A stretch of 64,000 nucleotides of DNA, taken from an uncultured delta proteobacterium. GTDB lineage: Bacteria > Desulfobacterota > Desulfobacteria > Desulfobacterales > SG8-13. A program made the translations under genes and the position numbers. The notes beneath the pieces were generated by a model that was not told where the DNA came from, ran no database searches, and saw only the letters and a program-made list of their open reading frames with translations. Positions 1-19,854 of the stretch are shown one piece after another; position 1 is the first letter of the stretch, and every line of letters starts with the position of its first letter. The stretch is from assembly GCA_963848135.1 (NCBI GenBank), contig CAWKCK010000018.1, forward strand, positions 138,938-202,937, given 5' to 3'.

Positions 1-162
1 AATGACTTCATTGTTCACAACTGCAACGATTCTATCAACAACCTCTGCAGCAGCAGCCTTCGGTATTACACTACCTGAGAAATAAAAAAGTGCGAGCATC
101 AAAACCAACGGACCCTTAAGCCGGAATATATGTTTATGCAATTTCAATAGCCGTAGTAACAT
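1..162 (-). CDS. SurA-family peptidyl-prolyl isomerase/chaperone, N-terminal part (runs off the window)
   Basis: Manual translation from ATG at 162 gives MLLRLLKLHK...AAAEVVDRIVAVVNNEVI: a signal peptide plus the typical SurA N-terminal motif. It follows another SurA-like gene. Confidence 0.8.
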   Translation of the reverse strand, partial: MLLRLLKLHKHIFRLKGPLVLMLALFYFSGSVIPKAAAAEVVDRIVAVVNNEVI

Positions 163-278
163 TTTTATTTTGCGCTTAAACTAAAAACCAGAAGTGCCGA
201 ACAACCGCCGGTTGTCAATTCGAACCTTAGATGCAATCGTGATAAGGGAATCTTGAATTCGTTAACGTTAAAGCGTTT

Positions 279-977: not shown

Positions 978-1110
978 ATTTGTTGGCGAATAAATACGCG
1001 AAAATAGATCTGCCTACTCCAGGATTACAGGCAATCAGTTCCTGTCCGGGTCAGCCGAAGTTGGTTTATCATTCCGAAAACTTACTGATATAACTCTGAT
1101 TTATAAACCA

Positions 1111-4100: not shown

Positions 4101-4626
4101 TGGCACAAAAATCACCCGGTTCTTCGACAATGGCCGTGCGAGTATACCCGCCGGCCACAAGCTTATCGATGAGTTCTTCCCGCTGGCAGGTTTCCCCAGC
4201 CATAATAAGGTCGGCGAATTCAACAAGATTTGCACGGGGTACAACCTTTTGCAGCAAAGCATCCGTAGTGGTGATAACGAGCTGAGGCGCATCCGATGAA
4301 GCCAACCGAAACAGCGTACCGATGCGTCGGGATGCCGTTTCGCTGTGGTAGGCCATGAATTTGTATGGCGAAAGATTGTAGGCGGGGAATTTTGATGTCA
4401 AGTTTACCGCATCGGGTAAAAAAAAACGCAGATCTTCTTCGAAAACTTCCGCAGCCTTCATCGAACTGGTGACTAAAAAAATTGGTCCCTTCACCTCTCT
4501 TAGCAGTCTCGACACCAGAAAGGCGGCGCCAGAATCAGTTAAGCCGGTGCAATCAATCCCGGCATCTCGATTGGAAACCCGTTCGATCAATTGCGGTATC
4601 GTCATTTTTGCTTGATTTTGATTCAT
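1111..4626 (-). CDS. mfd: Transcription-repair coupling factor
   Basis: 1171 aa; RID domain (VHTEHGIGRY), GDVGYGKT, DEEQRFGV, TATPIPRT, QLRGRVGRS, TRCF C-terminus. Confidence 0.98.
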   Translation of the reverse strand: MNQNQAKMTIPQLIERVSNRDAGIDCTGLTDSGAAFLVSRLLREVKGPIFLVTSSMKAAEVFEEDLRFFLPDAVNLTSKFPAYNLSPYKFMAYHSETASRRIGTLFRLASSDAPQLVITTTDALLQKVVPRANLVEFADLIMAGETCQREELIDKLVAGGYTRTAIVEEPGDFCARGMLLDVFTPGYNEPLRLEFFGDTVDTIRIFSAATQRTLEDLPEAIILPAREAVFYKQARIEVIARIRHQAAKLEIPVSRVRKIVDQVKSEGSYPGAEGLLPLIYPQLDTLFDYAPAQSLFILLNPGDLERVAVDSLARVGANYVEARENGRLCVEPEQMFLNWESAWDLLEQRNPLRIRSFVVLSRGATENDPVTACRFDLQENSDLQNALKHPESKEYLFTPLVDWIAARKQAGCTIVLVCRSKSRSERLQALLVPYGVKPEFKDTLPAQGSGSGAVYIVPGRISGGFVWPNEKIAIVTEEEIFGAHYRRRAKVQRTKPSELIAVEDLKAGDLIVHTEHGIGRYGGLVKLKLNGTTNDYLVINYRDDDKLYLPVDRMNMVQKYLGVDGVAAILDKMGGKSWARIKARVKKSAEKIAGALLKLYADRKVAKGVAFNLLDGELREFEAGFAFEETSDQLKAIEDVLNDMAQPVPMDRLVCGDVGYGKTEVALRASFVSVYNGKQVAVLVPTTVLAEQHYATFSDRFAQFPVRIACLNRFRSLGEQRAIVRDTKSGKIDIVIGTHRLLSKDVAFKDLGLLILDEEQRFGVKHKEKLKNLRRNVDVLTLTATPIPRTLHMSLTGTRDISVISTPPEYRQAIMTYISEFDDGVVADAIRKELQRDGQIFYIHNNISSIAKIAKKIKTLVPEVRIDVAHGRMSEDDLERTMLRFFQRETDMLVCTTIVESGLDIPSANTILVNRADKFGLAQMYQLRGRVGRSDEQAYAYLFIPNESLLGKDAQKRLKVLMEHSDLGSGFQIAMSDLQIRGGGTILGASQSGHIAAVGYEMFLELMENTIAEFKGEPVIEALEPEINIPLSAFIPESFIPDIDQRLSAYRRLSRLTDVGEITDIKSELADRYGKLPEEAVNLLLKIMLRVFAIRAGAKRLDLTGANLTISFSEAHLKNPRGLADLVMAQPKKYHLTVDHALKTQLKVGQAPGLLSQTKNILKEIARHVNS

Positions 4627-4730
4627 AAAAAACGTATCTAAAATTCTTACTTTCGGACCAAGATCAATTGTTGATACATCTGCACAACCTGATCGGAAGA
4701 TTAACTCACCGAAAGAAGCTCACGGTTAAA

Positions 4731-4806
4731 GCCACCTTAGCTCAGTTGGTAGAGCAACGCACTCGTAATGCGTAGGTCCGCGGTTCGAATCCGCGAGGTG
4801 GCTCCA
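4731..4806 (+). tRNA. tRNA-Thr (anticodon CGT)
   Basis: Cloverleaf GCCACCT...AGGTGGC-TCCA; anticodon arm ACGCA-CT-CGT-AA-TGCGT; GTTCGAATC T-loop; encoded CCA. Confidence 0.97.
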
Positions 4807-4895
4807 TTAAAAAAGAGGATCTACAAAGATTATGCCAAGAAGATACAGCCATAGAGAGGATTAAGGAAAGCATATCACGGTAAATCTTTAATTGG

Positions 4896-4930
4896 AAAGG
4901 GTTTTGTAGGGTTCTACAAAGCCTTTTTTT
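4896..4930 (+). terminator. Intrinsic terminator downstream of tRNA-Thr
   Basis: AAAGGGTTTTGTAG-ggtt-CTACAAAGCC followed by a T7 run. Confidence 0.65.
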
Positions 4931-4959
4931 ATTTTGGTCAACATTTTGGTCAACATTTT
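4931..4959. repeat. 12-bp tandem direct repeat (ATTTTGGTCAAC x2.4), possible integrase arm-type site
   Basis: attttggtcaac attttggtcaac atttt at the 3' end of the integrase remnant, next to the tRNA. Confidence 0.55.
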
Positions 4960-5604
4960 TCAATTGGTCATCCAACCAGGTTGTGTATAAGTCCATGGCT
5001 CTTTTCAAATTGGATTCATCCAGAGCCATGTAATAGGCATCCATCCCCTGAGTGGCATGACCTAACATTTTATTCCAAAAGCCTTACTTACTCCCTGCTC
5101 TTGTCATATTGATATTGACAGACCGTCTGATGTCATGAAACGTCACACCGTTTGGAGTCTTTCTGCCGCAAGGGATCTTAGCATTTTTGTAAGTGGTTGT
5201 GAAAAATCGTTTCAACCCTCCCCGGTTACTAATCGGGCGACCTTTATATGTAATAACGTGGTCATGGTTCAAGGTGCGTGGCAACTTGCTCAAAACCGTT
5301 TTAACTTTGTGGTTGATCGGGACAACCTTCGCCCTGCCTTCTTTCGTCACTGTCAGTGAGTCTGATGAATCCATCCTTGCGGTCAACCTGGGTACACTTG
5401 AGTTCCCGAATCTCACTTGGTGTTATGTCCTATTATAATGGATTTTCTGAGGTGCAAGGGGGATTCCTTGATTAACCCTTTATGCTCGGCAATGCTGACG
5501 GTCCTCGTTCTGGCGTTCGCTCCCCTTTTTAATTTTCGTTTTACAGTCCTGAAGGCCTTTACCACATCCCAGCCGATTTTCCCATCATCGAAATCCTTGG
5601 TCAC
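4931..5604 (-). pseudogene. Fragmented tyrosine recombinase (phage-type integrase)
   Basis: Three short consecutive ORFs carry successive parts: ARTRTVS, TKEGRAKVVPIN, the catalytic motif FHDIRRS, then LGH...DAYY. The N-terminus is missing and it points toward the tRNA. Confidence 0.85.
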
Positions 5605-5833
5605 CTTGGTTTTACAATGGAAATCTCTTTGTCAACCGTGGCCGGTGAGGTGATCCGGCTCTTCGGATGGACTTACCTAACTGCTCAAAATGCAGAATGT
5701 TGACCAATCAAACAAAAGGGCCCGTGGGTAGTTCACAGGCCCTTTTTATTCTTATTTTTGTGGAATTGCCGTTACATAACCCTCTCTATTTCCATGTTTA
5801 TCCTTAGTGAATTCCGTAAAACCCTTATTTCTA

Positions 5834-5878
5834 TGGTACGTCCGGCAGGATTCGAACCTGCGGCCTGCGGACTCGAAG
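5834..5878 (-). other. 3' half of a tRNA-Arg(TCG)-like gene; att-site relic
   Basis: Reverse complement is CT-TCG-AGTCCGCAGGCC-GCAGG-TTCGAAT-CCTGC-CGGACGT-ACCA: anticodon loop, T-arm and CCA. No D-arm or 5' half. Confidence 0.75.
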
Positions 5879-6191
5879 GGCAGAAATCTTGGAATTCAAA
5901 AATGGTTTAATTTCAACCAGTTGATACTATTTGACTTTTTCTACTAAAAACCCAACGACATCAATTATTGTCTATGGTGTCTTGGGATGAAAATTGGGTT
6001 CTCGTTTGAATATGGACAGTTAGGACGGTGGGGACGATGCTTACGGATAGATTCTAAATGATAATTATATGTTTCACCCAGGAAGCTGACGGATGCTACC
6101 CCGCTTTTTCAGATAACCTCTTATTCACCAAGCAACAGCAGGGGGACTCCAGGAGCTGCAGGTATCGTCGTGCTTATATCGAGACGGTGTA

Positions 6192-6752
6192 TCAGGGGAA
6201 TATCGTCGGTGGTATCGTAAATATCGTTGGTATCGTATCTATCGTCGGTATCGTTGAGAATATCGTCAATATCGTTGGTATCGTATCTATCGTCGGTATC
6301 GTCGAGAATATCGTCAATATCGTTGGTATCGTATCTATCGTCGGTATCGTCGAGAATATCGTCAATATCGTTGGTATCGTATCTATCGTCGGTATCGTCG
6401 AGAATATCGTCGGTATCGTCGGAATCGTCGTGCTTATCGTCAGAATCGTCGGTATCGTCGTGCTTATCGTCGGTATCGTCGGAATCGTCGTGCTTATCGT
6501 CGGTATCGTCGTGCTTATCGTCGGTATCGTCGTGCTTATCGTCGGTATCGTCGTGCTTGTCGTCGGTATCGTCGTGCTTGTCGCATCATCAAGTAGCAGT
6601 AACGGTATTCCGGGAGATGTATTTTGCGCCCAAACAGCAATCGCGGCAACGCTGCAGATGAGGACGGCCGTCAACACAAAAAAGGTACAGAATAATCCGG
6701 TTTTTTTCCTTGGTTTTGCCTTAAGAGAATTAGGTTTGTTTATTTTTGACAT
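6192..6752 (-). CDS. Secreted Thr/Ile/Pro/Ser-rich tandem-repeat protein
   Basis: Basic N-region, hydrophobic stretch and AVWA cleavage site; then PGIPLLLLDD and 130 aa of STTIPTI / TIPTIDTIPTILTIFS repeats; RBS AGGAGAAAAGGA before the ATG; own promoter. Confidence 0.75.
   Translation of the reverse strand: MSKINKPNSLKAKPRKKTGLFCTFFVLTAVLICSVAAIAVWAQNTSPGIPLLLLDDATSTTIPTTSTTIPTISTTIPTISTTIPTISTTIPTIPTISTTIPTILTISTTIPTIPTIFSTIPTIDTIPTILTIFSTIPTIDTIPTILTIFSTIPTIDTIPTILTIFSTIPTIDTIPTIFTIPPTIFP
6200..6582. repeat. Composite coding tandem repeat: ~4 x 48 bp and ~7 x 21 bp units built on a 9-bp core
   Basis: 48-mer aatatcgttggtatcgtatctatcgtcggtatcgtcgagaatatcgtc and 21-mer tcggtatcgtcgtgcttatcg are directly visible. 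Confidence 0.95.
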
Positions 6753-6830
6753 TTCCTTTTCTCCTGAATACGGGCTCTGATTTTCCGATTCAACCGCTTG
6801 AAATTATTAGATAGGGATAATTCTTGCGTT

Positions 6831-6860
6831 ATAATAAATTTAAACTTACTAAGATGTCAA
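6831..6860 (-). promoter_or_regulatory. Sigma70-type promoter for the repeat-protein gene
   Basis: TTGACA-18 nt-TATTAT on the minus strand, ~80 bp upstream of the ATG, in AT-rich context. Confidence 0.6.
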
Positions 6861-6885
6861 TAATTATTTCAATTATCTGTTAAAT

Positions 6886-7299
6886 CTATATTTTCTCAGG
6901 CCAATCAAACCTCTCTTTATCCGTCATATCATTTATATAGGGCCCCTGTTTTACTTCGATGATCTCAGCATCTTCTAGTATATCAACCCCATGTCCTCCT
7001 GAAGCCAAAAGAATGACATCACCGGATGCAAGGATACGGTCACAAAAAAATTTTCGGTCATCCGTAAAAAGCAGTATTTTAACTTTCCCTTTCCTTATTA
7101 TAAGAACTTCCTGCGTTCGGATGACTTCACGCTTCACGTCATTATGCGTGTGGGGTGATATATGATGGCCGGCCGGGTGCCTTAGAAAACCTAACTGCTG
7201 GGTGAACTCCGGGGGGGTGAAAAAGGTGACTCCGGGAATAGAATCTTCGGCATAGATGATCAGGGCGATTATCTTACCGTTGTGGCTTATCTTTTCCAT
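6886..7299 (-). CDS. Cupin-fold protein of nucleotide-sugar clusters (possible isomerase/epimerase)
   Basis: PHTH...TQEVLIIRKGK...GDVILLASGGHG...EVKQGPY cupin motifs; 3 bp from the aminotransferase gene. Confidence 0.7.
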   Translation of the reverse strand: MEKISHNGKIIALIIYAEDSIPGVTFFTPPEFTQQLGFLRHPAGHHISPHTHNDVKREVIRTQEVLIIRKGKVKILLFTDDRKFFCDRILASGDVILLASGGHGVDILEDAEIIEVKQGPYINDMTDKERFDWPEKI

Positions 7300-7302
7300 T
7301 TG

Positions 7303-8409
7303 TTAACCCGATTGAATTTCTGCGATACAATTTACAATATAGGTTATGTCTTCTTCGGTTAATTTCATTCCAGAGGGAAGGCTTAGGCCTCGCTCTCCCA
7401 AAAACTCTGAAACAGGACAACGTTCGTTTCTCAGTTCAGGATAAATTGGTTGCAAGTGGACAGGAACAAAAAAATTGCGGGCATCAATCCCACGTTTTGA
7501 CAGTTGCTGTAAAATTTCGTCTCTTGAAACGCCAAAAAGGTCATCTATCACCAGGGAGTAGTACCAGTATACGGATTCAGCGTCCAGCGGTTCAGCCTGG
7601 AGTCTTAAACCGGGAATCGGTTTTAGTTTATTGCTGTACAGCGCAGCATTGCGTCTCTTCCTCGTAATCGACTCCTCGATATGGTTCAATTGGGCAACAC
7701 CGATGGCCGCTTGAATATTGGTCATGCGGTAATTAAAACCAACTTCCCTATGAAGGTATCTTTTCTCTGGAAGAAAGGCCAGATTTTTCAACCTTCTTGC
7801 CTTGCGGGCAAGATATTTGTCATCCGTCAGCAGCATACCGCCTTCACCGGTTGTGACAATTTTGTTGGCATAAAAACTAAAGCAGCTGATGGTACCAAAA
7901 CTGCCTACCCGCCGTCCATTATAAACGGCTCCATGTGCCTCGGCGGCATCTTCAATTAAAAAAAGATTGTGCCGACGGCAGATATCTTCAATTTCCTCCA
8001 TATCGGCCGGACAACCAAAAGTATGCACGATAATGATCGCCCGCGTATTTGGAGTTAATTTTCTTCGTATATCATCCGGATCAATATTCCAGGTATCCGG
8101 CAATGCATCAGCCACCCTGATATCAGCTCCCTGGAGATGTACGGCATTGGCACAGGAGATAATGGATAATGACGGCAAGATAACTTCCTGGCCGGGTCCA
8201 ATGTCGAGAACCGCCATGGCCAAATGAAGCGCCGCCGTGCCACTTGTCACAGCGACCGCATACTTTCTTCCACAAAAATCAGCAAAACCTTGTTCAAATA
8301 TTTCAACGAACCTACCCCGCGATGAAATCCAATTTGTATCAAGACATTCTTTTACCAATGCCCATTCATCGCCATAGAGTTGCGGTTCACACATGGGGAT
8401 TTTTTTCAT
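7303..8409 (-). CDS. DegT/DnrJ/EryC1/StrS sugar aminotransferase (perosamine synthase-like)
   Basis: SGTAALHLA, IEDAAEAHG, SFYANKIVTTGEGG (PLP lysine), GFNYRMTNIQAAIG. Confidence 0.93.
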   Translation of the reverse strand: MKKIPMCEPQLYGDEWALVKECLDTNWISSRGRFVEIFEQGFADFCGRKYAVAVTSGTAALHLAMAVLDIGPGQEVILPSLSIISCANAVHLQGADIRVADALPDTWNIDPDDIRRKLTPNTRAIIIVHTFGCPADMEEIEDICRRHNLFLIEDAAEAHGAVYNGRRVGSFGTISCFSFYANKIVTTGEGGMLLTDDKYLARKARRLKNLAFLPEKRYLHREVGFNYRMTNIQAAIGVAQLNHIEESITRKRRNAALYSNKLKPIPGLRLQAEPLDAESVYWYYSLVIDDLFGVSRDEILQQLSKRGIDARNFFVPVHLQPIYPELRNERCPVSEFLGERGLSLPSGMKLTEEDITYIVNCIAEIQSG

Positions 8410-8413
8410 GAAA

Positions 8414-9112
8414 TTATTTTTCTTTAAATTTTTTTAGAATCATGGCGACATAACGAGACCCAAGGATAAATAAATCCAAGATATTCTCACAAGTTTTACT
8501 TTCCCCTCGCTGACGGTCGATAAAACTGTAAGGTATTTCCATAACTTTGAAACCACTACGCTCGGCGCTGAAAATCAAATCAATACAATATTCACCGTAG
8601 GCACCCTGCAGACGGTGATTTTTAATTAAACTTCGGCGGCAAAGAATGAAGCCGCTGGTTAAATCCGATGTTTTGGTGTTTAGCAGAAATTGACCAAAAG
8701 AATTTATGATCCTGCTAAAAACTCTTCTTGTAAAGGGTCGTTTGTCACGACCGCCCGGGATATACCGCGATCCGACCACCAGATGAGCAGACTGCAAGTG
8801 TTCAGACATTTTTTTAAATAATTCCGGGGGCATAGAAAGGTCACAGTCAAGCCAACCCACCGATTTCCCTCCCGCAGTATCAATACCGGCCTGGATAGCC
8901 GATGTGAGCCCTCTCTGATTTACTCTTCGATGGACCTTCATCCGCGGATATTTTATTCGAAGCGATTCGGCGGCCGCCCAGGTTCGGTCGGGTGAATCGT
9001 CATCAACAATGATGACCTCGACGTCCGGCATGGACGAAAAAATGCGCTTGATCAGCTTCTCAATGTTTTCGCGTTCATTGTAAGTTGGCAATATCAGAGA
9101 AATGTCGCACAT
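8414..9112 (-). CDS. Polyprenol-phosphate glycosyltransferase (GT2, DPM1/Ppm1-like)
   Basis: ILPTYNERENI, VDDDSPDRT, DCDLS, VGSRYIPGG, DLTSGF, R.RGESK. Confidence 0.9.
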   Translation of the reverse strand: MCDISLILPTYNERENIEKLIKRIFSSMPDVEVIIVDDDSPDRTWAAAESLRIKYPRMKVHRRVNQRGLTSAIQAGIDTAGGKSVGWLDCDLSMPPELFKKMSEHLQSAHLVVGSRYIPGGRDKRPFTRRVFSRIINSFGQFLLNTKTSDLTSGFILCRRSLIKNHRLQGAYGEYCIDLIFSAERSGFKVMEIPYSFIDRQRGESKTCENILDLFILGSRYVAMILKKFKEK

Positions 9113-9233
9113 AAGCGTCCTATATTACTTAAAGTTGAGCATCCTGAAAGCGTTAGGATGTTCGTCTAAGAAAAGCCCACCAAAAAATCGAGAACTATTG
9201 GGGTTCTGGCCTGCGGCTCAGCATTGTTGGGCT

Positions 9234-10988
9234 TCACTTCTGAGAATTCGGACCTTTTGGTAGCATCCGATAAAGGCCAAACTTATAATTGAGCTCCTGA
9301 TATGACTTTATTTCTTTAACGGGATAAAGGTCCAATACGGTTTGGCAAAATGCTTTTTGTTCGAGATCGTCGACGTTGCACCAGTAATTGTAGTGGAAGT
9401 ATACCCCGCCCCTGTAGCGGCTGAAAAGGCTATCCATATATTCTTGGCCATACAGGGCGGTCGCTGTCTGGGCCGCATCCTTTCCCCACACCAGGAACAT
9501 ATTCGGATTATGGGTCAGCACCAGCGAGTGGGCTGGCAGACTATCGACGATTTCTTTTGCAAACTGATGACCGACTCTGGCACCCCAAGCTTCCTGGGTT
9601 TCCGCCCGGATGTACGGCATAAAAGGCAAGAACGAAACAATGACAAGGGCAGCCAGCCCTTTATCCAGCCAGGTTATGTCAAACCAGTGCTCAAACCACC
9701 CGCATATGGATGCCATTCCATATCCGGCCAAAATGGCCAGCGGGAAATATGACATCAAAGAGAACCTGACATCAGTGCCATAATTATAACTCCCCGCATA
9801 AAAAAACAGGAATATGCCCCAGAATGCCATAAACCAACCGATCAATATGGTCTTTTCTTTAATCAATAAAAACTCAGAGAGCTTTCCGCGGGACAATCCA
9901 TTGTTCGGCTTGTTGCTGCCGGGAAATACGATACCCATTATGAAGAAAAGTGAAAACAACAGTGGATAGCGGACATTTTTAAAATAAAATAACGAATTCA
10001 CACTGACATTGTCTTTTAAATAGTGCAGCCCGAATTTTACGCCGTCAGATGCACCCCAGGCTTCACCTTTGACCGCGAATAGATGGATAAAGTGCGGCAA
10101 CAAAAGAAACAAAACGAGGAATGTGAACCCATAGAGCCGGTAGCGCGCAAATCCCTGGGGCGCAAGCAACAGCAAGGCCAGGCATGCTGGTATTGTAATA
10201 AGAATTGACTCGGGACGGAACTGACACGCAAAAGGGAGTATGACGGAAGCCAGAAACTGGGTTTTGTTGCCGGGATAACGAATGAAAAGCAAGACGGCAA
10301 ATACCGCCAATCCTCCCAGCAAGGCAGTGCTCGGCTCTGCCGCCGTCGTATTGGACCATCGGATTCCTTCCGGGGCCAGAACGAAGATCAAAGAGGCGAA
10401 CAGACCGACATTGATATTCCTGAAGAGCAGGTATCCGATAAAAAAAACAATGAATCCCGACAAGCCCCAAAGGATATTGTTCAACAGAAAAGCGGCTGTA
10501 TGTGATACGCCAAACAACCTATATAGAATGCTCAACAGAAAAGGCCAACCATTGGGCTCTTTGTTATATTCAAGCCGGCCGCAGAAATATTCGCCAAAGA
10601 GATTGCCGCCCTCAATGCACATGCCGGCTTTTTCAAGAGAGGCGATCGTTTGCCCCACATTTAGGTAAATATCCTCGTCGTGGAAAACCCGGTGGGTTCT
10701 GGGGGCGACGACGGCGGTCAAAACGATCCCCCCGAGCGTAATTAGAAAAACGACAATCCAGATTTTTCTCGTAATAGTCTTGGCAACCTCCCGGAATATA
10801 TTTATATTTACAATGAATCCGATCAAAATTAAATAAAAGTTTAATTCTAGAATCAAGGGGGATACGAATATTAATTGCTCTTTTATCTGCTGGCTGTCAT
10901 AGGATACGATCCAGACGATAAAACCGGAAAGCAGGACAAGATAGCCTATCAGCCATAATATGACCCCGCGGATTCTTTTAAATTCCAT
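9234..10988 (-). CDS. Multi-pass GT-C fold glycosyltransferase (ArnT/PMT, family 39-like)
   Basis: Many transmembrane segments; HDEDIY acidic motif in the first external loop; RPE motif; soluble C-terminal domain. Confidence 0.75.
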   Translation of the reverse strand: MEFKRIRGVILWLIGYLVLLSGFIVWIVSYDSQQIKEQLIFVSPLILELNFYLILIGFIVNINIFREVAKTITRKIWIVVFLITLGGIVLTAVVAPRTHRVFHDEDIYLNVGQTIASLEKAGMCIEGGNLFGEYFCGRLEYNKEPNGWPFLLSILYRLFGVSHTAAFLLNNILWGLSGFIVFFIGYLLFRNINVGLFASLIFVLAPEGIRWSNTTAAEPSTALLGGLAVFAVLLFIRYPGNKTQFLASVILPFACQFRPESILITIPACLALLLLAPQGFARYRLYGFTFLVLFLLLPHFIHLFAVKGEAWGASDGVKFGLHYLKDNVSVNSLFYFKNVRYPLLFSLFFIMGIVFPGSNKPNNGLSRGKLSEFLLIKEKTILIGWFMAFWGIFLFFYAGSYNYGTDVRFSLMSYFPLAILAGYGMASICGWFEHWFDITWLDKGLAALVIVSFLPFMPYIRAETQEAWGARVGHQFAKEIVDSLPAHSLVLTHNPNMFLVWGKDAAQTATALYGQEYMDSLFSRYRGGVYFHYNYWCNVDDLEQKAFCQTVLDLYPVKEIKSYQELNYKFGLYRMLPKGPNSQK

Positions 10989-12684
10989 TTTGCCTCACTA
11001 CCATGTAATTCCCGATTGCAAGAAAATCACAATTGGTATCCGCCATCGTTTTGATAGCATCTTCCGGGGAGCAAACCAGAGGCTCGCCGTGAAGGTTGAA
11101 GCTTGTATTAAGAGCGACTCCATAGCCGGTCAGTCTTTTTAATTCTTCAATCAGACGACAGAATATTGAACCGTTATTCACCACAATTTGTGGTCGACAG
11201 GACCCGTCCACGTTGATAACCCCTCTTAACAATGATCTTTTTTCTTTTTTAACCTGATAGGCCATGGTCATGAACCTATCGGGCCTGCCGTCGTAGTCCT
11301 CAAGAATTTCGCGGGCATCACCTTCAAGCATTGCCGGACAGAAGGGCTGGTACCACACTCTTTTCTTAAGGCGCAAATTTAATTCGTCCTTGATGGCTTC
11401 CGAGTCCGGGCGCGCCAGAATGGACCTTGCCCCTAAAGCCCTCGGACCATACTCCATGCGACCCTGAAACCAGAAGACGATCTTGCCGTTCGCCAGTTTA
11501 GCGGCCACATCCTTGGCAATATCCGACCGCTTGGAATATGAAAAACCGCTGGTTCGCAAGCAGGCCTCGATATCGTTGTCTGTATATTCCGGCCCCCATA
11601 GCAGATTGGGAACAGCATACCTGTGGACGGCATTTAATCTATAATTGGTAGCCATGGCAGCGCCTAAAGCAAGCCCGCCATCGCCCATATGCGGGAAAAC
11701 AAAACATTTCTTGATCCCGGATTGATTTCTTAAAATCCGGTTTAGCTTCACATTGGAAAATATGCCTCCGGCAAGGCACAAATGTTTTAGACCGGTGGCC
11801 GCAACGGCATTTTTGACCAGTTCAAGCGCCTTAATCTCCAGTGTCCGCTGCGCCATAAAGGCAAATTGTTCCGCAGGGTAGCGCCAAAGTATTTTCTGCA
11901 GTGCCTCAAACATCTTTAAGGCGGAAAATCGGCAGCGCAGAGTGAGACCTTTTACGTCAATGAGCTCCATCATAGGGTTTTCGTCATCATGGATCGGGTA
12001 GGCGTAATTCGCCAATGCCATGACCTTGCCTTCGTCTTCCAGTTCCCGCATGTTCAACAAATTGGTTACATGCTCGAAAAAGATACCGAAGGAGTGGCGT
12101 GCAGAAATCGCAGATACCTGATCCAGTATCCCGTTTCTGAACTGATAAACTGTTCCGGACATTCCATCCCCGAGGCCGTCAGCGGTGATGACCAGCGCTT
12201 GTTTGAAGGGGCTGCAAAACGCAGCGGCGACAGCGTGACAGAAGTGGTGATCTTCTATTTGTAGACTGAAGTCATGGAATCCGAGCTTTTGCAACCGCCG
12301 GGTGACTGTGCGTCGGCTTACCCAGTGACTTGCACCCGTGGGAGGGAGTTCGGTAAGTTTATATTTGGCCTTTTTCTTGATAAAAGAGAGACGGCCGGCA
12401 GCGGCCTTTCTGCGGCGGATTAAATAATACTGCTCCTTTAGTGAGGGAAAGACCCGGGTTAAGGTCTTGGCAAAATCCCAGGTGGATAGAGAAATATTTG
12501 ATATGTCCTGATAGGTGGTGCCTGTTTGATCAAGACACATATTTATCGATTTTTCCGGAAAGGCAATTTCAAGCTTACGCCGGGTCAGCCGCTCCTCATT
12601 CACGGCATAGACGATCTTATCACCCTCTATTAGCGCCGCTCCTGAATCGTGTCCGTCCCAAATACCTAAAATTTTATTGCGCAT
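10978..12684 (-). CDS. Carbamoyltransferase (NodU/CmcH/TobZ family)
   Basis: GHDSGAALI, NEERLTRRK, HHFCHA, EGKVMALA, GRMEYGPRALGARSILA, NTSFNLHGEPLV. Confidence 0.95.
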   Translation of the reverse strand: MRNKILGIWDGHDSGAALIEGDKIVYAVNEERLTRRKLEIAFPEKSINMCLDQTGTTYQDISNISLSTWDFAKTLTRVFPSLKEQYYLIRRRKAAAGRLSFIKKKAKYKLTELPPTGASHWVSRRTVTRRLQKLGFHDFSLQIEDHHFCHAVAAAFCSPFKQALVITADGLGDGMSGTVYQFRNGILDQVSAISARHSFGIFFEHVTNLLNMRELEDEGKVMALANYAYPIHDDENPMMELIDVKGLTLRCRFSALKMFEALQKILWRYPAEQFAFMAQRTLEIKALELVKNAVAATGLKHLCLAGGIFSNVKLNRILRNQSGIKKCFVFPHMGDGGLALGAAMATNYRLNAVHRYAVPNLLWGPEYTDNDIEACLRTSGFSYSKRSDIAKDVAAKLANGKIVFWFQGRMEYGPRALGARSILARPDSEAIKDELNLRLKKRVWYQPFCPAMLEGDAREILEDYDGRPDRFMTMAYQVKKEKRSLLRGVINVDGSCRPQIVVNNGSIFCRLIEELKRLTGYGVALNTSFNLHGEPLVCSPEDAIKTMADTNCDFLAIGNYMVVRQNGI

Positions 12685-14125
12685 CTTTTTCTCTTTGGAT
12701 CTGCTTATACCCCGTATTAAAAGTAAACTTTAAGCCACCTGCAATAGCGCTGAATAAACCTTTGGCCTTAATCATTTTTAACAATCTAAATAATGCTACC
12801 GGCCGGAAGTAAAAGCGCCGATACGCTTTGTTTCGAAAATCATTTACCCTTTCGGGTGCAAGACCAGGCAAACTCATTCCGGCCGTCTCCTGACTGAACT
12901 CGCGGAATTCGCTGCCCTTTATCCAGCCGGAGGCTTTGGCCGCTTCATAAAGATCGGATCCGGCAAAAGGGGTGGCACAATAAAATTGTGCCAGGTCAGG
13001 ATCCAAATTTAAGGCAAATTCAATTGTTTCATTGATCGATTTTTCCGTTTCACCCGGTAATCCCAAGATAAAGTGAGCGGCCACCTTTATTCCCGCTCGC
13101 TTTGCCATTGCGACGGCAGTCCTCGATTGTTCGAGTGTTATTTTTTTTTTGACGGCATCTAATATTTTTTGATTGCCGGATTCAATGCCATAGCTTATCA
13201 TCCAACAGCCTGCCTCACGCATGGCCGTCAAAAGCTCCTGATCGACCGTATCAACACGACTGTTGCAGGTCCAGCTGATGTCCAGGCCCTGCTGCCGAAC
13301 GGATTGGCAAAACGCCATCACATAATCCCTGTCAACCGTAAAAGTGTCCGCCCAGATAAAAAATTCTTTGACACCAAAGGAAGCGATATTATGCTCAATC
13401 TCCTTCATCATTACCGGTGTAGACTTTCTGCGCAGTCTCCGGCCATAGTAGGTCTGAGCCGTGCAAAATGTGCAGGGAAACGGGCAACCCCGCAGCGGAG
13501 CGAGAATTAAATATGCTTTACCGTTAAGCGGTAATTTATATTTTTCCAGGTCCAACAGATGCCATGCCGGAAAGGGCAATTGATCCAGGTCCTGGATAAA
13601 AGGCCGTTGCCGGTTATGAAATATTCGGCCGTTGCTGTCCTTGTAACTTATTCCCCATATATCGTCTAACGCACCATGATGTTCCAGTGCATCTGCCAGT
13701 TCAGCCATTGATTCTTCCGGCTCATTTCGGATCACAAAGTCCAGCCCCGGGGTGTGGTTCAGACAGTCTTCGGCTAAAACGGATACATGGGTGCCAAATA
13801 CAGCCGTTTTAATGCCGGGATCATGATTTTTTAACTCATCGGCGAAAGCAAGGTCGCTGTTGATCGTCGGCGTCGAGGAACTCCAAGCAACGAGCTGGTA
13901 TTTGTTTGGCCGGATGTTTTTTAGAAAGGCAGCGCGAGAAATTTCCTGAGCTGCACAATCAACGATCTCCACCTCATGCTGATTTTTTACAAGAACAGCG
14001 CCGCAGGCAACCAAACTTATCGGAGGCCATAAGGTCGCCCACATACCTTTCTCTTGAGTGCAGCGGCCTTCGCGGATATAGAATTTTTGATCGCTGGAAG
14101 GTGGATTTAATAGCAATATCTTCAT
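12674..14125 (-). CDS. B12-binding domain radical SAM enzyme
   Basis: MKILLLNPP start, B12-binding N-domain, RGCPFPCTFC (CxxxCxxC), GIESGNQ, FILGLPGET. Start set at ATG 14125; an upstream start at 14161 is possible. Confidence 0.92.
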   Translation of the reverse strand: MKILLLNPPSSDQKFYIREGRCTQEKGMWATLWPPISLVACGAVLVKNQHEVEIVDCAAQEISRAAFLKNIRPNKYQLVAWSSSTPTINSDLAFADELKNHDPGIKTAVFGTHVSVLAEDCLNHTPGLDFVIRNEPEESMAELADALEHHGALDDIWGISYKDSNGRIFHNRQRPFIQDLDQLPFPAWHLLDLEKYKLPLNGKAYLILAPLRGCPFPCTFCTAQTYYGRRLRRKSTPVMMKEIEHNIASFGVKEFFIWADTFTVDRDYVMAFCQSVRQQGLDISWTCNSRVDTVDQELLTAMREAGCWMISYGIESGNQKILDAVKKKITLEQSRTAVAMAKRAGIKVAAHFILGLPGETEKSINETIEFALNLDPDLAQFYCATPFAGSDLYEAAKASGWIKGSEFREFSQETAGMSLPGLAPERVNDFRNKAYRRFYFRPVALFRLLKMIKAKGLFSAIAGGLKFTFNTGYKQIQREKDAQ

Positions 14126-14197
14126 TGCAAACAGTTGGATGGGTATCCGGATGTCAGGCAAAAATCACTTGAATTGAAAAAAAATATCATGTTTATT

Positions 14198-14893
14198 TCA
14201 TTTGAAAAATAAGTATTTAATAAAAGAGTATATATATCGGAACCAGACCTTTTTCAGGTCGATTTTAGAGTACCCGCCAACCCTCTTATTTTCATGTGAA
14301 GGTACTTCGCCCATGCGAAATCCTTTTTTAATGGTTTTAATAATCATTTCCTGCTCAATCGTGGTAATGTTTTCCTTTAATCCCAGCTGTTTGATTACAT
14401 CTGTTTTGATTGCTCGAAACCCGTTTTGACTTTCACTCAACCACACGTTGAATTTCCAATTGATACAAGCCGCAATAAAGGAGCTGCCCATCAGTCGAAA
14501 ACATTCATCAAACCCCCCGTGAAGTTCACTGGACCCGCCTATCAATCTTGATCCGGAAACGTGATCGGCTTCGCCCCGAATGATCGGGTCGATCAGTTTG
14601 GGGATGTCGGCAGGATTATGGGAGCCATCGGCGTCAATAAAGACGATAATGTCACCGCTGACATAGTTTAAAGAATGTCGCAGCGCTTCGCCTTTGCCTT
14701 TCTTATTGTCCAGGATAACTTTAACGCCAAGATCCCTTGCGATTTGACCGGTTTTATCTTCGGAGTGACCATCGACCACGATAATTTCATCGGCAAATGA
14801 CATGCAATCCCTGATCACCTTGCTGATCGTCAACTCCTCATTGAGAGTCGGTATGACGACGGATATCTTATGCGCTGATTGCTGTTTTTCCAT
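14198..14893 (-). CDS. GT2 glycosyltransferase (polyprenol-phosphate sugar synthase-like)
   Basis: VVIPTLNEE, VVDGHSEDKT, GKGEA, DADGSH, GSR, SQNGFRA, R.GG.SK. Confidence 0.9.
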   Translation of the reverse strand: MEKQQSAHKISVVIPTLNEELTISKVIRDCMSFADEIIVVDGHSEDKTGQIARDLGVKVILDNKKGKGEALRHSLNYVSGDIIVFIDADGSHNPADIPKLIDPIIRGEADHVSGSRLIGGSSELHGGFDECFRLMGSSFIAACINWKFNVWLSESQNGFRAIKTDVIKQLGLKENITTIEQEMIIKTIKKGFRMGEVPSHENKRVGGYSKIDLKKVWFRYIYSFIKYLFFK

Positions 14894-15004
14894 GATAAAT
14901 ATTCATTTTGATAATATAAAACTGAGTATCAACGGGAACCGAATCCAACAATAACATCACAGAATCGAATCTGCTTTCGGAAAAAACAGCTGGTGCTGGT
15001 TCCG

Positions 15005-16537
15005 TCAGTTAATTTGATAGATTTTAGGGTCGAATTTACCAAATTTTACATTATTTTCCCCCGCCACGACGTGAATCAAATCCCAATTTTTCGGTGGTAT
15101 CCGATACCAGGACGGCATTGCAGCTCGGTATCCCGGTATTTCTATGACGCTTGCGGAACCATCAACCACAAGATAGCCGCCCAGCGGCTTTGGTTTGCCG
15201 GAATAATTTTCAACGATTTCGAAGGTCAATTTTCCTTCGGAAAATAATTGCACAAAGATGGCGGTTCTATGATCCGTATAAACCGGTTCACCCTTGTAAT
15301 TTTGCAGTAAAACCGATGCAATTTTCCGATAGTCGGCGGTATGGATACGTGCGGCCTTTGCAGTATTGGTACCGGCGATGAACAAATGTATGACCATCAG
15401 GGCAAACAACGATCTAATGGCCCAGCGCCAATTTTCATGTTTCTGTATCATGTGGGTGCATAGGGCGGCTGTTGCCAGGCACTGCAAAGGTACGATCATT
15501 GATAAGTAACGAATATATTTTGTAATCGGCTCTCCCTCCAAAGACACGACACCCCACTGAAGATAGGCCGGGATCAGCCAGACACTGAGAGATAAACCCA
15601 AGGCCAACCACTGTTTTTCATACCATGCCGACAGCGGTACAAAGATGAATAGGAGCCATAAGATTCCGAAATGTCCTTCATCATAAATTGGATTAACATT
15701 GAATACATGAAAAAGGGTCCGGGGAAGATAGTTTGGGTCTTTGTTGCTGACAACTATTTTTTCGGTCGCGTCTATGCAGAAAATCCTGGCAAACCACGAT
15801 CCCGATGCATAATATCCAATTAACATATCAGCAAAAATAATCAGAGCAAATCCCAGCAAAGCCCAATATATATAGGCACCACGCGGTCTTAATACTATAA
15901 GCACGGGTATTGCGGCAATTCCCATGAGAACAAAAAGTTCATTCACAAGCCACCCGACTCCCATCAATGCTCCGGATAAGATCAATACGGCGTTGCCCTG
16001 CCATGCCGGCCAGGCCCTATTTTCCAACGCCCTCGCTGCATGGATGAAGAAGAACAATCCGGCAGCAACACACGCAGCGTGCTGGTTTGAGGGGGAGAGT
16101 TGCGTGTCGAAAACAATCTGAAGCGGGTATACAATCCATAATAATGCTGCCAGGACGGCTGTTTGCCGGCCCCAAAGGCTTTCGGCTGTTAAATAGATAA
16201 ATAGGCAGGTCATCAAAGTGCAGATTAATGGGTATACTGAAAATGCAGCCTCTGTATAGCCAAATGCTTTATATAAAACGGTGAGGGGCAGAACCATTCC
16301 GAGACGAAAGGCTAATTGGCTGCCGCCGTTTTCCAAAATATTGGCGCCCTCCCCCAGATTCCGGGCATGCTGAATGTAGCTCATGTCATCGTTTGGGCCG
16401 ATGCCGACGAACCATAGTATTCGAATAACCAGGCAGAGCAGCAAGAGGCATACTATCAAACCGGAATTCCGCACAAAATTTTTGATTTTCCGGTTATCAG
16501 AACGCCGATTCACAGATCCATCCCTAATAAATGTCAA
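15005..16537 (-). CDS. Multi-pass GT-C fold glycosyltransferase (family 39-like)
   Basis: IRILWF...PNDDMSY acidic loop motif, ~12 hydrophobic segments, RYL motif, soluble C-terminal domain. Confidence 0.72.
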   Translation of the reverse strand: MTFIRDGSVNRRSDNRKIKNFVRNSGLIVCLLLLCLVIRILWFVGIGPNDDMSYIQHARNLGEGANILENGGSQLAFRLGMVLPLTVLYKAFGYTEAAFSVYPLICTLMTCLFIYLTAESLWGRQTAVLAALLWIVYPLQIVFDTQLSPSNQHAACVAAGLFFFIHAARALENRAWPAWQGNAVLILSGALMGVGWLVNELFVLMGIAAIPVLIVLRPRGAYIYWALLGFALIIFADMLIGYYASGSWFARIFCIDATEKIVVSNKDPNYLPRTLFHVFNVNPIYDEGHFGILWLLFIFVPLSAWYEKQWLALGLSLSVWLIPAYLQWGVVSLEGEPITKYIRYLSMIVPLQCLATAALCTHMIQKHENWRWAIRSLFALMVIHLFIAGTNTAKAARIHTADYRKIASVLLQNYKGEPVYTDHRTAIFVQLFSEGKLTFEIVENYSGKPKPLGGYLVVDGSASVIEIPGYRAAMPSWYRIPPKNWDLIHVVAGENNVKFGKFDPKIYQIN

Positions 16538-16684
16538 AACGGTACCGAATGTGAAGACAACCTGAAGAATACCCAGATTACATTAAGGGCTTGATTTAAC
16601 ATTTAATTAATTGTTATACAAGGTGTATTCAAATAAACTTTTTAATCAATAAATGAAATGACAATTTGATTGAAACTTTAAATC

Positions 16685-16969
16685 CATGCCCTCAGGGCAT
16701 GATCGGAATTCAAAGGCTTTGTCACTTGAGCGACTCATTATTACCCCTGTAATGGGTTATCTCCACAATCTCATTAGGAGAAGGGACAAACGAATCGCTT
16801 CAGCAAATTAACCCATACCATTTGGCACGGCCAGTACCATATCATTTGGGTGCCCAAATACCGCCACAGGATACTCACAGGAGCAGTCGCGAACGAGATT
16901 GGTAACTGTATCAGGGCCTTTTCGCAACCATTTGGGTACCTCCTGTCGTCGCTGTTAATGTTTGGGTGA
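16685..16969 (+). mobile_element. IS200/IS605-family remnant (left-end hairpin plus truncated tnpA)
   Basis: Hairpin CATGCCC-TCA-GGGCATG at 16685. After RBS AGGAG, the frame from 16790 reads (ACG)NRFSKLTHTIWHGQYHIIWVPKYRHRILTG, a TnpA Y1 N-terminus. The start is mutated and the frame stops before the HUH motif. Confidence 0.85.
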
Positions 16970-17023
16970 ACTGTTGCTATGACCATGTTCCCAGATGGTT
17001 TTTTATTTTTCAAGTACGAATCG

Positions 17024-17386
17024 ATGCAGGATCGAGGTTATACACATATTATTAGGAGAGAAGCCGGTGCTTTGTATCGACACTTGCGCCGCCGGTTTTA
17101 TTATATATTCCGTCGCAATTATGTTCGCACCATGATCGCAAATCGCAAAGGTGTGTGTGGCCGGCATGGCTGCTGTGATCTCTCAATTTTGGCGAGATTC
17201 CGTACATGCATCGATCCTGCTGACCGAACGAAGTGCCTTAAGTGGCATTGTCTACCTTTTCATTGCCGACGGTATCCTTTCGACGAAAAAGATAAGATAC
17301 CGGAGACAAGATCTTATTGCAGCTTTTATTGGTTGGAAGAAAACTCCGGGATTGATGAAACGCGAAGCGATCGTACCTGTAAATAG
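17024..17386 (+). CDS. Cys-rich hypothetical protein, distantly YkgJ/CxxCxxCC-like
   Basis: RKGVCGRHGCC...C...CLKWHCLPFHCRRYP...C pattern; start uncertain (16979 or 17024). Confidence 0.55.
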   Translation: MQDRGYTHIIRREAGALYRHLRRRFYYIFRRNYVRTMIANRKGVCGRHGCCDLSILARFRTCIDPADRTKCLKWHCLPFHCRRYPFDEKDKIPETRSYCSFYWLEENSGIDETRSDRTCK

Positions 17387-18114
17387 TTACTTATGTACAC
17401 ATATCCGGGTGATTGCCTGGCGCAGATGGGGGACTAATCGGTTGTGGATTTCGGAATGCGCAATTTGAGGCGCAATTAAACTATACAAAATTCGTTAAAC
17501 TTTCAATCTCCACTTCTACGGCAACTGACAGCCGGTGCCGTCCTATCATGTTTTTCAATTTATCGTGTAGCACCAGGGAGGAACGGACTATAGGGGCAGG
17601 TAAATTATATTTCGGAAAAATGATTCCAGAAAACAAATAGAGTAAAAAGGGTTTAAAATCCTGGTCTTAAGGGCTTATTTAAAGGTACAGTGCAAACAAA
17701 TTATATTGGGTTATATAAAAAAAAGACTGTATCTAGGCTAAGGGACACAAAAGACCACAGAGAACTCTCAATCCAAGTCTTAAACGACTCCCTGGCACTC
17801 CTCTTTGTTTAGGCTCACCGCAATCTTGCCGTCATTCAGAACTTCTCGACGGTATTATCAACAAAAACCTGTGGATATTGGGTGTATTCGCTATTATGCA
17901 CCTGTTTAGCCGTGGATATGTCTCTAACATCGAAGGTTGGTGCGGTCACTCTGGCTTGATCTAAATGGGAAAATAAGTGTATAATAACTTATTGGTTATG
18001 TTCAACACCGAAGGAACGATCGGGCGCGACCGGAACTTGACTTTCCTTTACCGGGAACTCATATTGAGAAAGTTTCAGAAATAAACATTCAGCTATCCCG
18101 ATAAGGAGAGAACA

Positions 18115-18336
18115 ATGGCTTATACATGCAAAAATTGCGGCGCTGTTGCCGATGCGCCCGGTCATTTGTGCAACCCCTGTGGTGACAAAGCCAATTGCAG
18201 TTTCTGTGGCGAACCAAAGGTTGATACCAAACACGTATGCAAAGACAAGCTTGCTGTCATGCAGTATGTCTGCGAGGGGTGCGGTCGGGTGGCGATGGAG
18301 GAAAAGCACCTTTGTAGCCCCTCAAAAATCAAATGA
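18115..18336 (+). CDS. Small metal-binding protein with three CxxCG-x7-H-x-C motifs
   Basis: RBS AAGGAG; 73 aa with 10 Cys and 3 His; upstream TTGACT-17-CATATT. Confidence 0.85.
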   Translation: MAYTCKNCGAVADAPGHLCNPCGDKANCSFCGEPKVDTKHVCKDKLAVMQYVCEGCGRVAMEEKHLCSPSKIK

Positions 18337-18392
18337 ACTACTGGTATATGTGCTTACTGGTATCTATTGAGCAGCGCCGTTAACATGTAAAA

Positions 18393-19805: not shown

Positions 19806-19854
19806 ATATTTTATATTTTTATTTATTTTAATGTATCCCAGCTGATAGTCACGC

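Follow-up and report, generated by a model that had tools for sequence, protein, structure and literature searches.

A 64,000-nucleotide (nt) stretch of contig CAWKCK010000018.1 from an uncultured delta proteobacterium of the sediment sulfate-reducer type (Desulfobacterales lineage SG8-13; assembly GCA_963848135.1, positions 138,938 to 202,937), referred to here as the window, contains a genomic island in which eight genes for making and transferring lipid-linked sugars are followed by a gene for a threonine-rich repeat protein. The cluster is supported as a coherent extracytoplasmic glycosylation system in which glycosyltransferases (GTs) of the GT2 type would load a lipid carrier and enzymes of the GT-C type would draw on it. 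The explanation favored here, at a probability of roughly 0.5, is a mobile protein O-glycosylation system with two lipid-carrier and GT-C branches, whose acceptor is the island's own Thr-repeat protein. It builds on the gene identities, the GT-C folds, the borders of the island, the separability and recurrence of its modules, and a local enrichment of poly-Thr proteins around related modules. The initial annotation of this DNA had proposed a dedicated O-glycosylation system attaching a single modified sugar; the extracytoplasmic GT2 and GT-C system and the expectation of Thr-rich neighbors have held, whereas a single sugar is now less likely than two.

The gene cluster and its enzymes

All coordinates are window positions. 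Nine open reading frames (ORFs) lie between 6192 and 16537, all on the minus strand and co-directional in the ORF listing, and these are the nine proteins that were searched. In order of transcription they encode GT-C1, GT2a, a radical S-adenosylmethionine (SAM) enzyme (rSAM), a carbamoyltransferase (CarbT), GT-C2, GT2b, an aminotransferase (DegT), a cupin and the Thr-rich ORF; the assignment to modules A and B is discussed below.

15005..16537, minus strand: GT-C1, 510 amino acids (aa), module B; PMT_2 at 38.6 bits, cutoff 26.1 (Pfam)
14198..14893, minus strand: GT2a, 231 aa, module A; Glycos_transf_2 at 95.9 bits (Pfam)
12674..14161, minus strand: rSAM, 495 aa, module A; B12-binding and Radical_SAM domains (Pfam), CxxxCxxC motif
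10978..12684, minus strand: CarbT, 568 aa, module A; Carbam_trans_N at 131.7 bits and Carbam_trans_C at 190.9 bits (Pfam)
9234..10988, minus strand: GT-C2, 584 aa, module A; PMT_2 at 23.6 bits, just under the cutoff of 26.1
8414..9112, minus strand: GT2b, 232 aa, module B; Glycos_transf_2 at 114 bits (Pfam), DCD motif
7303..8409, minus strand: DegT, 368 aa, module B; DegT_DnrJ_EryC1 at 396 bits (Pfam)
6886..7299, minus strand: cupin, 137 aa, module B; weak WbuC-cupin match at 29.3 bits, cutoff 42 (NCBIfam)
6192..6752, minus strand: Thr/Ile/Pro repeat protein with TIPTIS-type repeats, 186 aa, predicted to be secreted or membrane-anchored

The genes are tightly packed, with 11-nt overlaps at the rSAM/CarbT and CarbT/GT-C2 junctions and gaps of 4 nt between GT2b and DegT and 3 nt between DegT and the cupin. 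The Thr-rich ORF lies downstream of the cupin on the same strand, after a gap of 133 nt. The ORF listing and the Pfam and NCBIfam matches bear out the gene identities first assigned by eye, eight co-directional genes and then a Thr-rich ORF. The claimed lack of wzx/wzy-type, chain-length and GT4 genes also agrees with the searches: no Wzx, Wzy, Wzz, ABC-transporter or GT4 family was matched among the nine cluster proteins (Pfam), nor was a glycan polymerase, ligase, export gene, GtrA_DPMS_TM or MATE flippase matched in the island (Pfam).

Both GT2 proteins resemble enzymes that load a lipid carrier. GT2a is of the polyprenyl-phosphate hexose synthase type, judging from its best NCBIfam model, AglJ (149 bits, under cutoff), and from dolichyl-phosphate hexose synthase models that also lie near; its homologues are 55-80% identical across phyla. 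GT2b appears to be of the polyprenyl-phosphate sugar synthase type, its best NCBIfam models being PgfS, ArnC, AglJ and PpgS, each far under cutoff. The best of the 36 models matched by the rSAM is HpnJ (TIGR03471), at 301 bits against a cutoff of 577.6 and thus short of the equivalog, and the BchE model follows at 220.6 bits (NCBIfam). CarbT is similarly short of the NodU equivalog (137 versus 1000 bits), but its Carbam_trans domains exceed the Pfam cutoffs and suggest an O-carbamoyltransferase of the NodU/CmcH type. DegT, which scores 360 bits with a LegC-family model (cutoff 420, NCBIfam), is predicted to be a LegC/PseC-like sugar aminotransferase dependent on pyridoxal phosphate, and the cupin is a possible sugar-nucleotide isomerase or epimerase. 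Neither GT-C protein matches Pfam PMT (PF02366) or the YfhO family at E <= 0.01, PMT_2 being the one family reported for both; some GT-C neighbors in a related locus (L013) do match PF02366.

Two modules that occur separately

A profile of GT-C2 identified 77 loci in species-representative genomes, in which homologues of the other genes were counted by tblastn; many of the contigs are cut short, so that the counts are minima. The record titles span at least six phyla, including Thermodesulfobacteriota, Ignavibacteria, Planctomycetota, Nitrospirota, Acidobacteriota and Chlorobiota, among others. A CarbT homologue is present in 66/77 loci, GT2a in 45/77 and the B12 rSAM in 33/77, with all four genes together in 27/77. 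DegT and cupin homologues occur in 0/77 each, and a GT-C1 homologue, at half-length cover, in 2/77. The GT-C1 family is rarer, with 52 matches, and its neighborhoods were viewed in 22 metagenome loci. There, GT-C1 relatives are accompanied by DegT in 7/22 loci, by GT2b in 6/22 and by the cupin in 2/22 (L090 and L105), while at some loci the cupin's place is taken by a GFO/IDH/MocA dehydrogenase and a methyltransferase.

On this comparison, GT2a, rSAM, CarbT and GT-C2 form one module (A) and GT2b, DegT, the cupin and GT-C1 another (B), and the eight window genes would represent module A flanked by parts of module B. The two are frequently neighbors elsewhere as well: module B with GT-C1 relatives often adjoins module A (L090, L093-L097, L100, L102). 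Because the modules also occur separately, two different sugars are likelier than one. The idea of a single sugar that is at once aminated, carbamoylated and rSAM-modified is made less likely by the absence of DegT and cupin from GT-C2 loci and by the tendency of GT-C1 to travel with module B. In the simplest reading, one lipid-linked donor carries an amino sugar and the other a hexose that has been carbamoylated and modified by the rSAM.

Module A itself varies. A radical SAM enzyme of the SPASM type is present in 16/77 GT-C2 loci, and in those viewed closely (e.g., L036 and L049) it replaces the B12 enzyme between the GT-C2 copy and GT2a, and a second GT-C2 paralogue follows. Seven loci with CarbT and GT-C2 and without a radical SAM enzyme (L016, L018, L025, L027, L029 and others) have a class II aldolase just upstream, which is L-fuculose-phosphate-aldolase-like (317.8 bits, cutoff 264). 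In one genome (G028), the GT-C2 homologue lacks an upstream carbamoyltransferase and faces an acyl-CoA synthetase, and the contig ends in an 8-nt tandem repeat right after its stop codon (L006:1-60); a coding repeat was considered there and is ruled out by the 8-nt period.

Predicted folds of the GT-C enzymes

AlphaFold2 models of GT-C2 (mean predicted local distance difference test, pLDDT, 77; predicted template modeling score, pTM, 0.83) and GT-C1 (pLDDT 87, pTM 0.88) are clear in predicting a GT-C fold for both. The closest structures are as follows, with Z values within about 1 treated as ties.

STT3: Z 23.5 for GT-C2, 25.5 for GT-C1
Pmt: Z 22.6 for GT-C2 (Pmt1/2), 26.4 for GT-C1 (Pmt4)
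AglB: Z 22.8 for GT-C2, 26.1 for GT-C1
ArnT: Z 19.3 for GT-C2, 27.2 for GT-C1 (aligned at full length, 424 residues)

Since the top values are ties of this kind, the fold cannot distinguish enzymes that act on proteins from those that act on lipids or glycans. Structure prediction, which the initial annotation had proposed for both enzymes, thus confirmed the GT-C fold without splitting ArnT, protein mannosyltransferase and oligosaccharyltransferase types. Searches of PDB sequences with the GT-C2 profile and with GT-C1 matched nothing meaningful. GT-C enzymes catalyze their reactions outside the membrane. GT-C2 has two invariant residues in its first outer loop, D104 and E105, and in GT-C1 the same loop carries an NDD motif at 49-51, of which D50 is invariant and N49 and D51 nearly so; as far as sequence can indicate, these acidic motifs fit catalysis on that side.

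Threonine-rich secreted proteins near related modules

If the system acts on proteins with Thr-rich tracts, related modules might be expected to have such proteins nearby, as the initial annotation had suggested. A first rule, based on whole-ORF composition (Thr >20% or Ser, Thr and Pro together >42%), produced mostly wrong-frame noise, with four credible secreted ORFs in 77 loci, and was set aside. The rule used here calls an ORF of at least 60 aa Thr-rich if some 40-aa window contains at least 30% Thr and if there is a hydrophobic N-terminal 12-mer. With flanks of up to 10 kb, it finds 40 ORFs in 29/99 related loci (23/77 GT-C2 loci and 6/22 GT-C1 loci), most of them true poly-T tracts. At the median, the nearest module gene is 1.1 kb away from them; 31/40 are within 2 kb, and 27/99 loci have one at that range. 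The tract ends 30 aa or less from the C-terminus in 21/40, as it does in the window's ORF. The proteins are mutually unrelated, including glycoside hydrolase (GH) family GH10, GH11, GH12 and GH16 enzymes with carbohydrate-binding modules, FecR-like proteins, PEGA proteins and NlpC/P60 proteins, so that by sequence it is the tract, and not a family, that they appear to have in common.

For a controlled comparison, 16 loci on the longest contigs were taken, of which 14 were used; L035 (one hit) and L041 (none) had no controls and were dropped. The 60 control windows, each of 20 kb, were drawn from the contigs that carry the modules in the 14 genomes and lie at least about 20 kb from the module.

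Thr at least 30%: module windows 8/14 (10 ORFs in 280 kb), control windows 4/60 (4 ORFs in 1.2 Mb), Fisher p = 7e-5
Thr at least 50%: module windows 6/14, control windows 0/60, Fisher p = 1.6e-5

Applied to other residues, the same rule gives per-base enrichments of 2.3-fold for Ser, 1.4 for Ala and 0.7 for Gly, compared to 10.7-fold for Thr. Secreted Thr-rich ORFs thus adjoin homologous clusters much more frequently than they occur in control DNA of these genomes.

Two further patterns were seen among these proteins. Lipoprotein-like secreted GH10/GH11 enzymes beside SPASM-variant modules have a poly-Thr tract followed by a C-terminal Trp/Gly tail of the SSWWGGGWW type (L049:1525-3150, L058:2651-3835, L094:15449-16789, L094:12927-14585 and L102:19548-20579). 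This tail may act in sorting or be modified as a second site, and we know of no described sorting signal that it matches. In five Desulfobacterota-type loci (L035, L040, L043, L066 and L081), unrelated Thr-tailed proteins terminate in a short tail of similar sequence, T-T-V-S-P-x-x or V-S-P-x-x, after the poly-T tract.

The repeat protein

The candidate acceptor in the window contains 51 Thr codons, 4 in its first 56 residues and 47 in its last 130, which makes the original estimate of about 47 Thr per 130 residues exact. A Lys-rich and then hydrophobic N-terminus, from which the product is predicted to be exported, precedes T-I-P-T-I-S-type repeats that continue to the last residue. Five ORFs in the 6.03-Mb genome fall under the Thr rule, and this one ranks first, with 47% Thr in 40 aa. 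Three DNA features accompany it.

6199..6574: tandem DNA repeat with a 9-nt unit and a 48-nt higher-order unit, 96% matches (Tandem Repeats Finder)
6831..6860, minus strand: sigma-70-like promoter match, TTGACA-18 nt-TATTAT, 11/12 matches, a consensus match only
5714..5746, minus strand: terminator-like hairpin downstream of the repeat ORF, 13-pair stem and T run, a consensus match only

The promoter-like site sits in the 133-nt gap preceding the ORF. Both repeat periods are multiples of three. Of the frames open across the repeat, the one on the minus strand is alone in encoding the Lys-rich/hydrophobic N-terminus and in having its ATG preceded, at a few bases, by an AGGAG-type ribosome site. 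In a metagenome DNA contig from a close relative, positions 6584-6743 are covered with 5 differences in 160 nt and run into a similar repeat, and the intergenic piece just upstream of the ORF has 13 differences in 149 nt. RNA-library contigs from one study (X7 and X17) span the cupin, DegT and GT2b at 95-99% identity, although DNA carry-over is possible; none lies over 6580-6931, the cover consisting of a few low-depth contigs that tell neither way. The tRNA-Thr(CGU) that reads ACG, the main Thr codon of the repeat, is located 1.4 kb from the ORF. This closeness is probably a coincidence, because G006 and G007 also have the tRNA, a backbone gene.

The island and its borders

Cluster and repeat ORF lie together in an island inserted next to a tRNA gene.

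4808..17739: genomic island, 12.9 kb (12,933 bp), not in congeners
4731..4806, plus strand: tRNA-Thr (anticodon CGT; ARAGORN), part of the backbone and the island's left border, in the same place in congeners G007 and G006
4742..5416, minus strand: degraded tyrosine-recombinase (integrase) remnant in two ORF pieces, 5084-5416 and 4742-5068
5834..5895, minus strand: orphan 3' fragment of a tRNA-like gene, with T-arm, acceptor 3' strand and CCA
16979..17386, plus strand: 135-aa ORF at the island's right end, without a Pfam or NCBIfam match

On one side, positions 2-4807 encode a SurA-like gene, mfd and tRNA-Thr(CGU); on the other, 17740-24561 encode an AAA/SPOR protein, a YhdP/AsmA-like protein and MurJ. 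G007 and G006 of the same genus are collinear with each stretch, and the gap between the two is 964 bp and 1046 bp there, respectively, versus 12,933 bp here. Searches for GT-C2 did not find it in 15/15 same-genus and 19/19 same-family genomes and found it in 2/21 genomes from other families of the order. GT-C1 has one weak match alone among 300 further genomes from the order, and none of the 15 same-genus genomes yielded the Thr-rich ORF. Metagenome contigs that are 83-96% identical to the GT-C1 end share the island's right flank. By these comparisons, the island appears to be horizontally acquired and to carry both the cluster and the repeat ORF.

The integrase remnant gives a weak Phage_integrase match (E 0.0012, 19.1 bits, under cutoff; Pfam), and no direct repeat of the tRNA-Thr 3' end of 10 nt or longer was found at the far border. 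The 25-base 3' end of the orphan tRNA-like fragment, which seemingly has a long variable arm, has a single occurrence, both within the window and across the whole genome; ARAGORN calls no tRNA at its position, and the 6.03-Mb assembly contains no full-length copy. The fragment is probably a relic of an attachment (att) site carried in by a mobile element. At the right end, 16927-17041 and 17451-17589 are 81-87% identical to several unlinked places in congeners, which suggests small dispersed repeat elements. Far outside the island, tRNA-Ala(TGC) and tRNA-Ile(GAT) are adjacent on the minus strand at 40785-40958, the usual pair of an rRNA-operon spacer.

A proposed pathway and its alternatives

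From these observations and from related enzymes, a possible pathway can be inferred, including its carrier lipid, its sugars, the sequence of its tailoring steps, the side of the membrane on which it acts and its acceptor. In branch A, GT2a would put a hexose on polyprenyl phosphate, the NodU-type enzyme would O-carbamoylate the sugar, and the HpnJ-like B12 radical SAM enzyme would change it by rearrangement or methylation; by analogy to HpnJ, tailoring would take place on the lipid-linked and not on the nucleotide sugar. In branch B, the cupin and the DegT aminotransferase would produce an amino sugar, which GT2b would put on the carrier and GT-C1 would transfer. The first sugar on Thr is probably attached by one GT-C, with the other adding or extending a second sugar. 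The acceptors are most likely Thr-rich tracts of exported proteins, here the 186-aa TIPTIS-repeat protein, which when glycosylated would be a mucin-like, sugar-coated protein of the surface or periplasm. In favor of this pairing, neither the repeat ORF nor GT-C2 was found in the 15 congeners, and both lie within one island.

A broader proposal is more tentative, and we would put it at somewhat worse than even odds. It may be that the island represents a widespread, undescribed mucin-type O-glycosylation pathway of anaerobic diderm bacteria, in which poly-Thr tails and linkers are coated with a carbamoylated, radical-SAM-rearranged sugar, possibly ring-contracted as by HpnJ if the analogy extends that far. 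Its targets would include glycoside hydrolases and FecR-like proteins, and it would be mobile here, with both branches and a rapidly evolving repeat acceptor.

Several points weigh against the favored explanation. The island includes no flippase gene. The Thr rule is post hoc, having been set after the first, cruder scan, and uses naive ORF calling with thresholds of 0.3, 0.4 and 0.5; by this rule, 70/99 related loci lack a Thr-rich ORF (many of these contigs are 2-6 kb). The genomes compared are related to some degree and are not independent: the Thr-rich ORFs of L094 recur in L095 at identical coordinates, and the Thr-rich proteins of L037 and L060 are near-identical. The TIPTIS repeat is less Thr-dense than the poly-T tracts of other loci, and both translation and glycosylation of the repeat ORF are predictions from sequence. 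To these can be added the nominal top rank of ArnT for GT-C1, which Pmt4 and AglB equal to within about 1 Z, the glycan genes at some related loci, and the oddities of the repeat ORF, which are taken up with the alternatives to which they belong.

The alternative that survives best, although it is on balance unlikely, is that the two GT2/GT-C pairs decorate an exported surface glycan (O antigen, core, exopolysaccharide (EPS) or capsule) in a Gtr-like manner, and that the Thr-rich ORF is a bystander. A GT2 paired with a GT-C is the standard layout for periplasmic glycan decoration (PMC11127046), and the fold of GT-C1, with ArnT nominally on top (Z 27.2), is compatible with it. Genes for Wza, Wzc, Wzy_C or a BBP2_2 porin are found in 10/77 related loci and GtrA in 5/77; nine of those ten loci also encode Thr-rich FecR-like proteins, and an EPS acceptor is equally possible in that lineage. 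All of the named host phyla of GT-C2 loci, moreover, are ones that we take to be diderm lineages. However, the island lacks genes for a glycan polymerase, a ligase, glycan export and GtrA, 14/23 of the GT-C2 loci bearing Thr-rich ORFs show no EPS genes in the DNA examined, and glycan decoration leaves unexplained the 10.7-fold, Thr-specific, close-range enrichment of secreted poly-Thr ORFs.

Less probable still is that proteins are indeed O-glycosylated but that the repeat ORF is a fortuitous frame in expanding repeat DNA, the real targets being elsewhere or the island decaying. The ORF does adjoin mobile-element debris, namely the integrase remnant and the orphan tRNA fragment. Two opposite-strand frames (6058-6780 and 6227-6661, both plus) are also open across the repeat, as follows from an ORF built on a tandem DNA repeat. 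Codon use is extreme, with ACG for 46/51 Thr (24% genome-wide) and ATA for 36/41 Ile, and is that of a freshly amplified unit; no sequence homologue was found in the 77 related loci or the 15 congeners. Against a fortuitous frame, the ORF has a ribosome site, a promoter-like site and a charged/hydrophobic N-terminus that is located outside the repeat, both periods are divisible by three, and the 5' coding part has changed less in the close relative than the adjacent intergenic piece (5/160 versus 13/149 nt). The ORF is also the top Thr-rich secreted ORF in 6 Mb, placed as such ORFs are in other phyla.

An Arn-like modification, in which amino and carbamoylated sugars on lipid A phosphates or core would alter surface charge, is mirrored by DegT, GT2 and GT-C as counterparts of ArnB, ArnC and ArnT, by weak matches to the ArnB and ArnC models and by the full-length alignment of ArnT to GT-C1, but is highly improbable given scores of 232.5 versus a cutoff of 631 for ArnB (PRK11658) and of 46.9 and 39.9 versus 529 for ArnC (PRK10714), nine proteins that match no ArnA, ArnD, ArnE or ArnF type family (Pfam), an ArnT that is tied with Pmt4 and AglB for GT-C1 and ranks below STT3 and Pmt for GT-C2, and Thr-rich neighbors that it leaves unexplained.

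Protein O-glycosylation on the island's repeat protein, if correct, would bring into use GT-C families without a solved relative and an unusual carbamoylated, radical-SAM-tailored sugar. The adjacent poly-Thr proteins would be testable substrates, including secreted xylanases and glucanases with sugar-protected linkers, and the CarbT/GT-C pair would be a simple genomic marker of the system. The 12.9-kb island would unite machinery and acceptor in a form compact enough for heterologous reconstitution.

Relation to known systems

Among systems that pair a lipid-linked monosaccharide donor with a GT-C enzyme, those that modify proteins, glycans and lipids can each be compared to the island. The Ppm1/Pmt systems (GT39) of actinobacteria and eukaryotes share with it a polyprenyl-phosphate sugar donor, a GT-C enzyme and Ser/Thr-rich acceptors, and Pmt structures are among the top fold matches of both window GT-Cs (Z 22.6 for GT-C2, 26.4 for GT-C1). 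They differ in that the window GT-Cs lack a PF02366 match, with no PDB chain matched by sequence, and the sugar here is probably other than plain mannose, unlike that of Pmt.

Gtr and Arn systems are GT2 and GT-C layouts for the decoration of glycans and lipids. In the ArnB/ArnC/ArnT pathway for lipid A aminoarabinose, a GT-C is likewise combined with an aminotransferase and with a GT2 that loads the carrier, and the acceptor is a lipid. The resemblance extends to a sugar with a transient or permanent N- or O-acyl-type group, but the window proteins miss the equivalog cutoffs, and ArnA, ArnD, ArnE and ArnF are lacking. The three-component systems for periplasmic glycan modification (GtrA/GtrB/GtrC; a polyprenyl-phosphoribose synthase, a MATE flippase and a GT136 enzyme, PMC11127046) likewise use a lipid-linked monosaccharide made in the cytoplasm, a periplasmic GT-C and sometimes auxiliary sugar-modifying enzymes. 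Their acceptor is a polysaccharide and a dedicated flippase is included, whereas the window island has no flippase. The GtrA and glycan assembly genes seen at 5/77 and 10/77 related loci, respectively, have no equivalent in the island.

For the tailoring chemistry, the nearest precedent lies in hopanoid biosynthesis. In the HpnI/HpnK/HpnJ cyclitol-ether pathway, a GT2 enzyme adds a sugar to a lipid, on which it is then rearranged by a B12 radical SAM enzyme. The window rSAM is nearest to HpnJ but, at 301 bits, below its cutoff of 577.6; the island contains no hopanoid genes, and its lipid is presumably a polyprenyl phosphate carrier and not the end product.

The closest described analogues are the streptococcal Pgf and GtrB/PgtC2 pathways. 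According to PMC11092751 (also available as PMC12041528), GT-A and GT-C enzymes in streptococci O-glycosylate C-terminal Ser/Thr-rich regions outside the membrane; regions of this kind tend to be C-terminal. In Pgf (PgfS, PgfE, PgfM1 and PgfM2; Streptococcus mutans) and GtrB/PgtC2 (Streptococcus pyogenes and Streptococcus pneumoniae), as described there, a GT-A makes the polyprenyl-phosphate sugar, as proposed here, and one or two GT-Cs transfer it to Ser/Thr-rich, often C-terminal disordered regions. The S. mutans cluster is described as encoding the adhesins Cnm, CnaB and CbpA (PMC11092751), and its Thr-rich adhesin genes recall the ORF 133 nt downstream of the window cluster. The second GT-C, PgfM2, further changes the glycoprotein in that description, and the window also has two GT-Cs. 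PgfS is moreover the best NCBIfam model of GT2b, though at 59.9 bits versus a cutoff of 500.

The two are nonetheless distinct. The streptococcal GT-Cs are described as YfhO family proteins, whereas those of the window match PMT_2; because its GT-Cs are not of the YfhO type, the window system is not a member of the Pgf family. Pgf has no counterpart of the carbamoyltransferase, the B12/SPASM radical SAM enzyme or the aminotransferase tailoring genes. The hosts also differ, being diderm lineages here, unlike the streptococcal hosts of Pgf. In the full texts searched (supplements aside), no description was found of a carbamoyltransferase, radical SAM and GT-C combination. The initial claim that no such system had been described thus stands for the exact combination in the literature found, but not for its logic, which is also that of Pgf, where Thr-rich adhesin genes share a cluster with a GT-A and two GT-Cs (PMC11092751). 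The island system follows a known logic, and joins to it a seemingly unusual chemistry and a widespread module.

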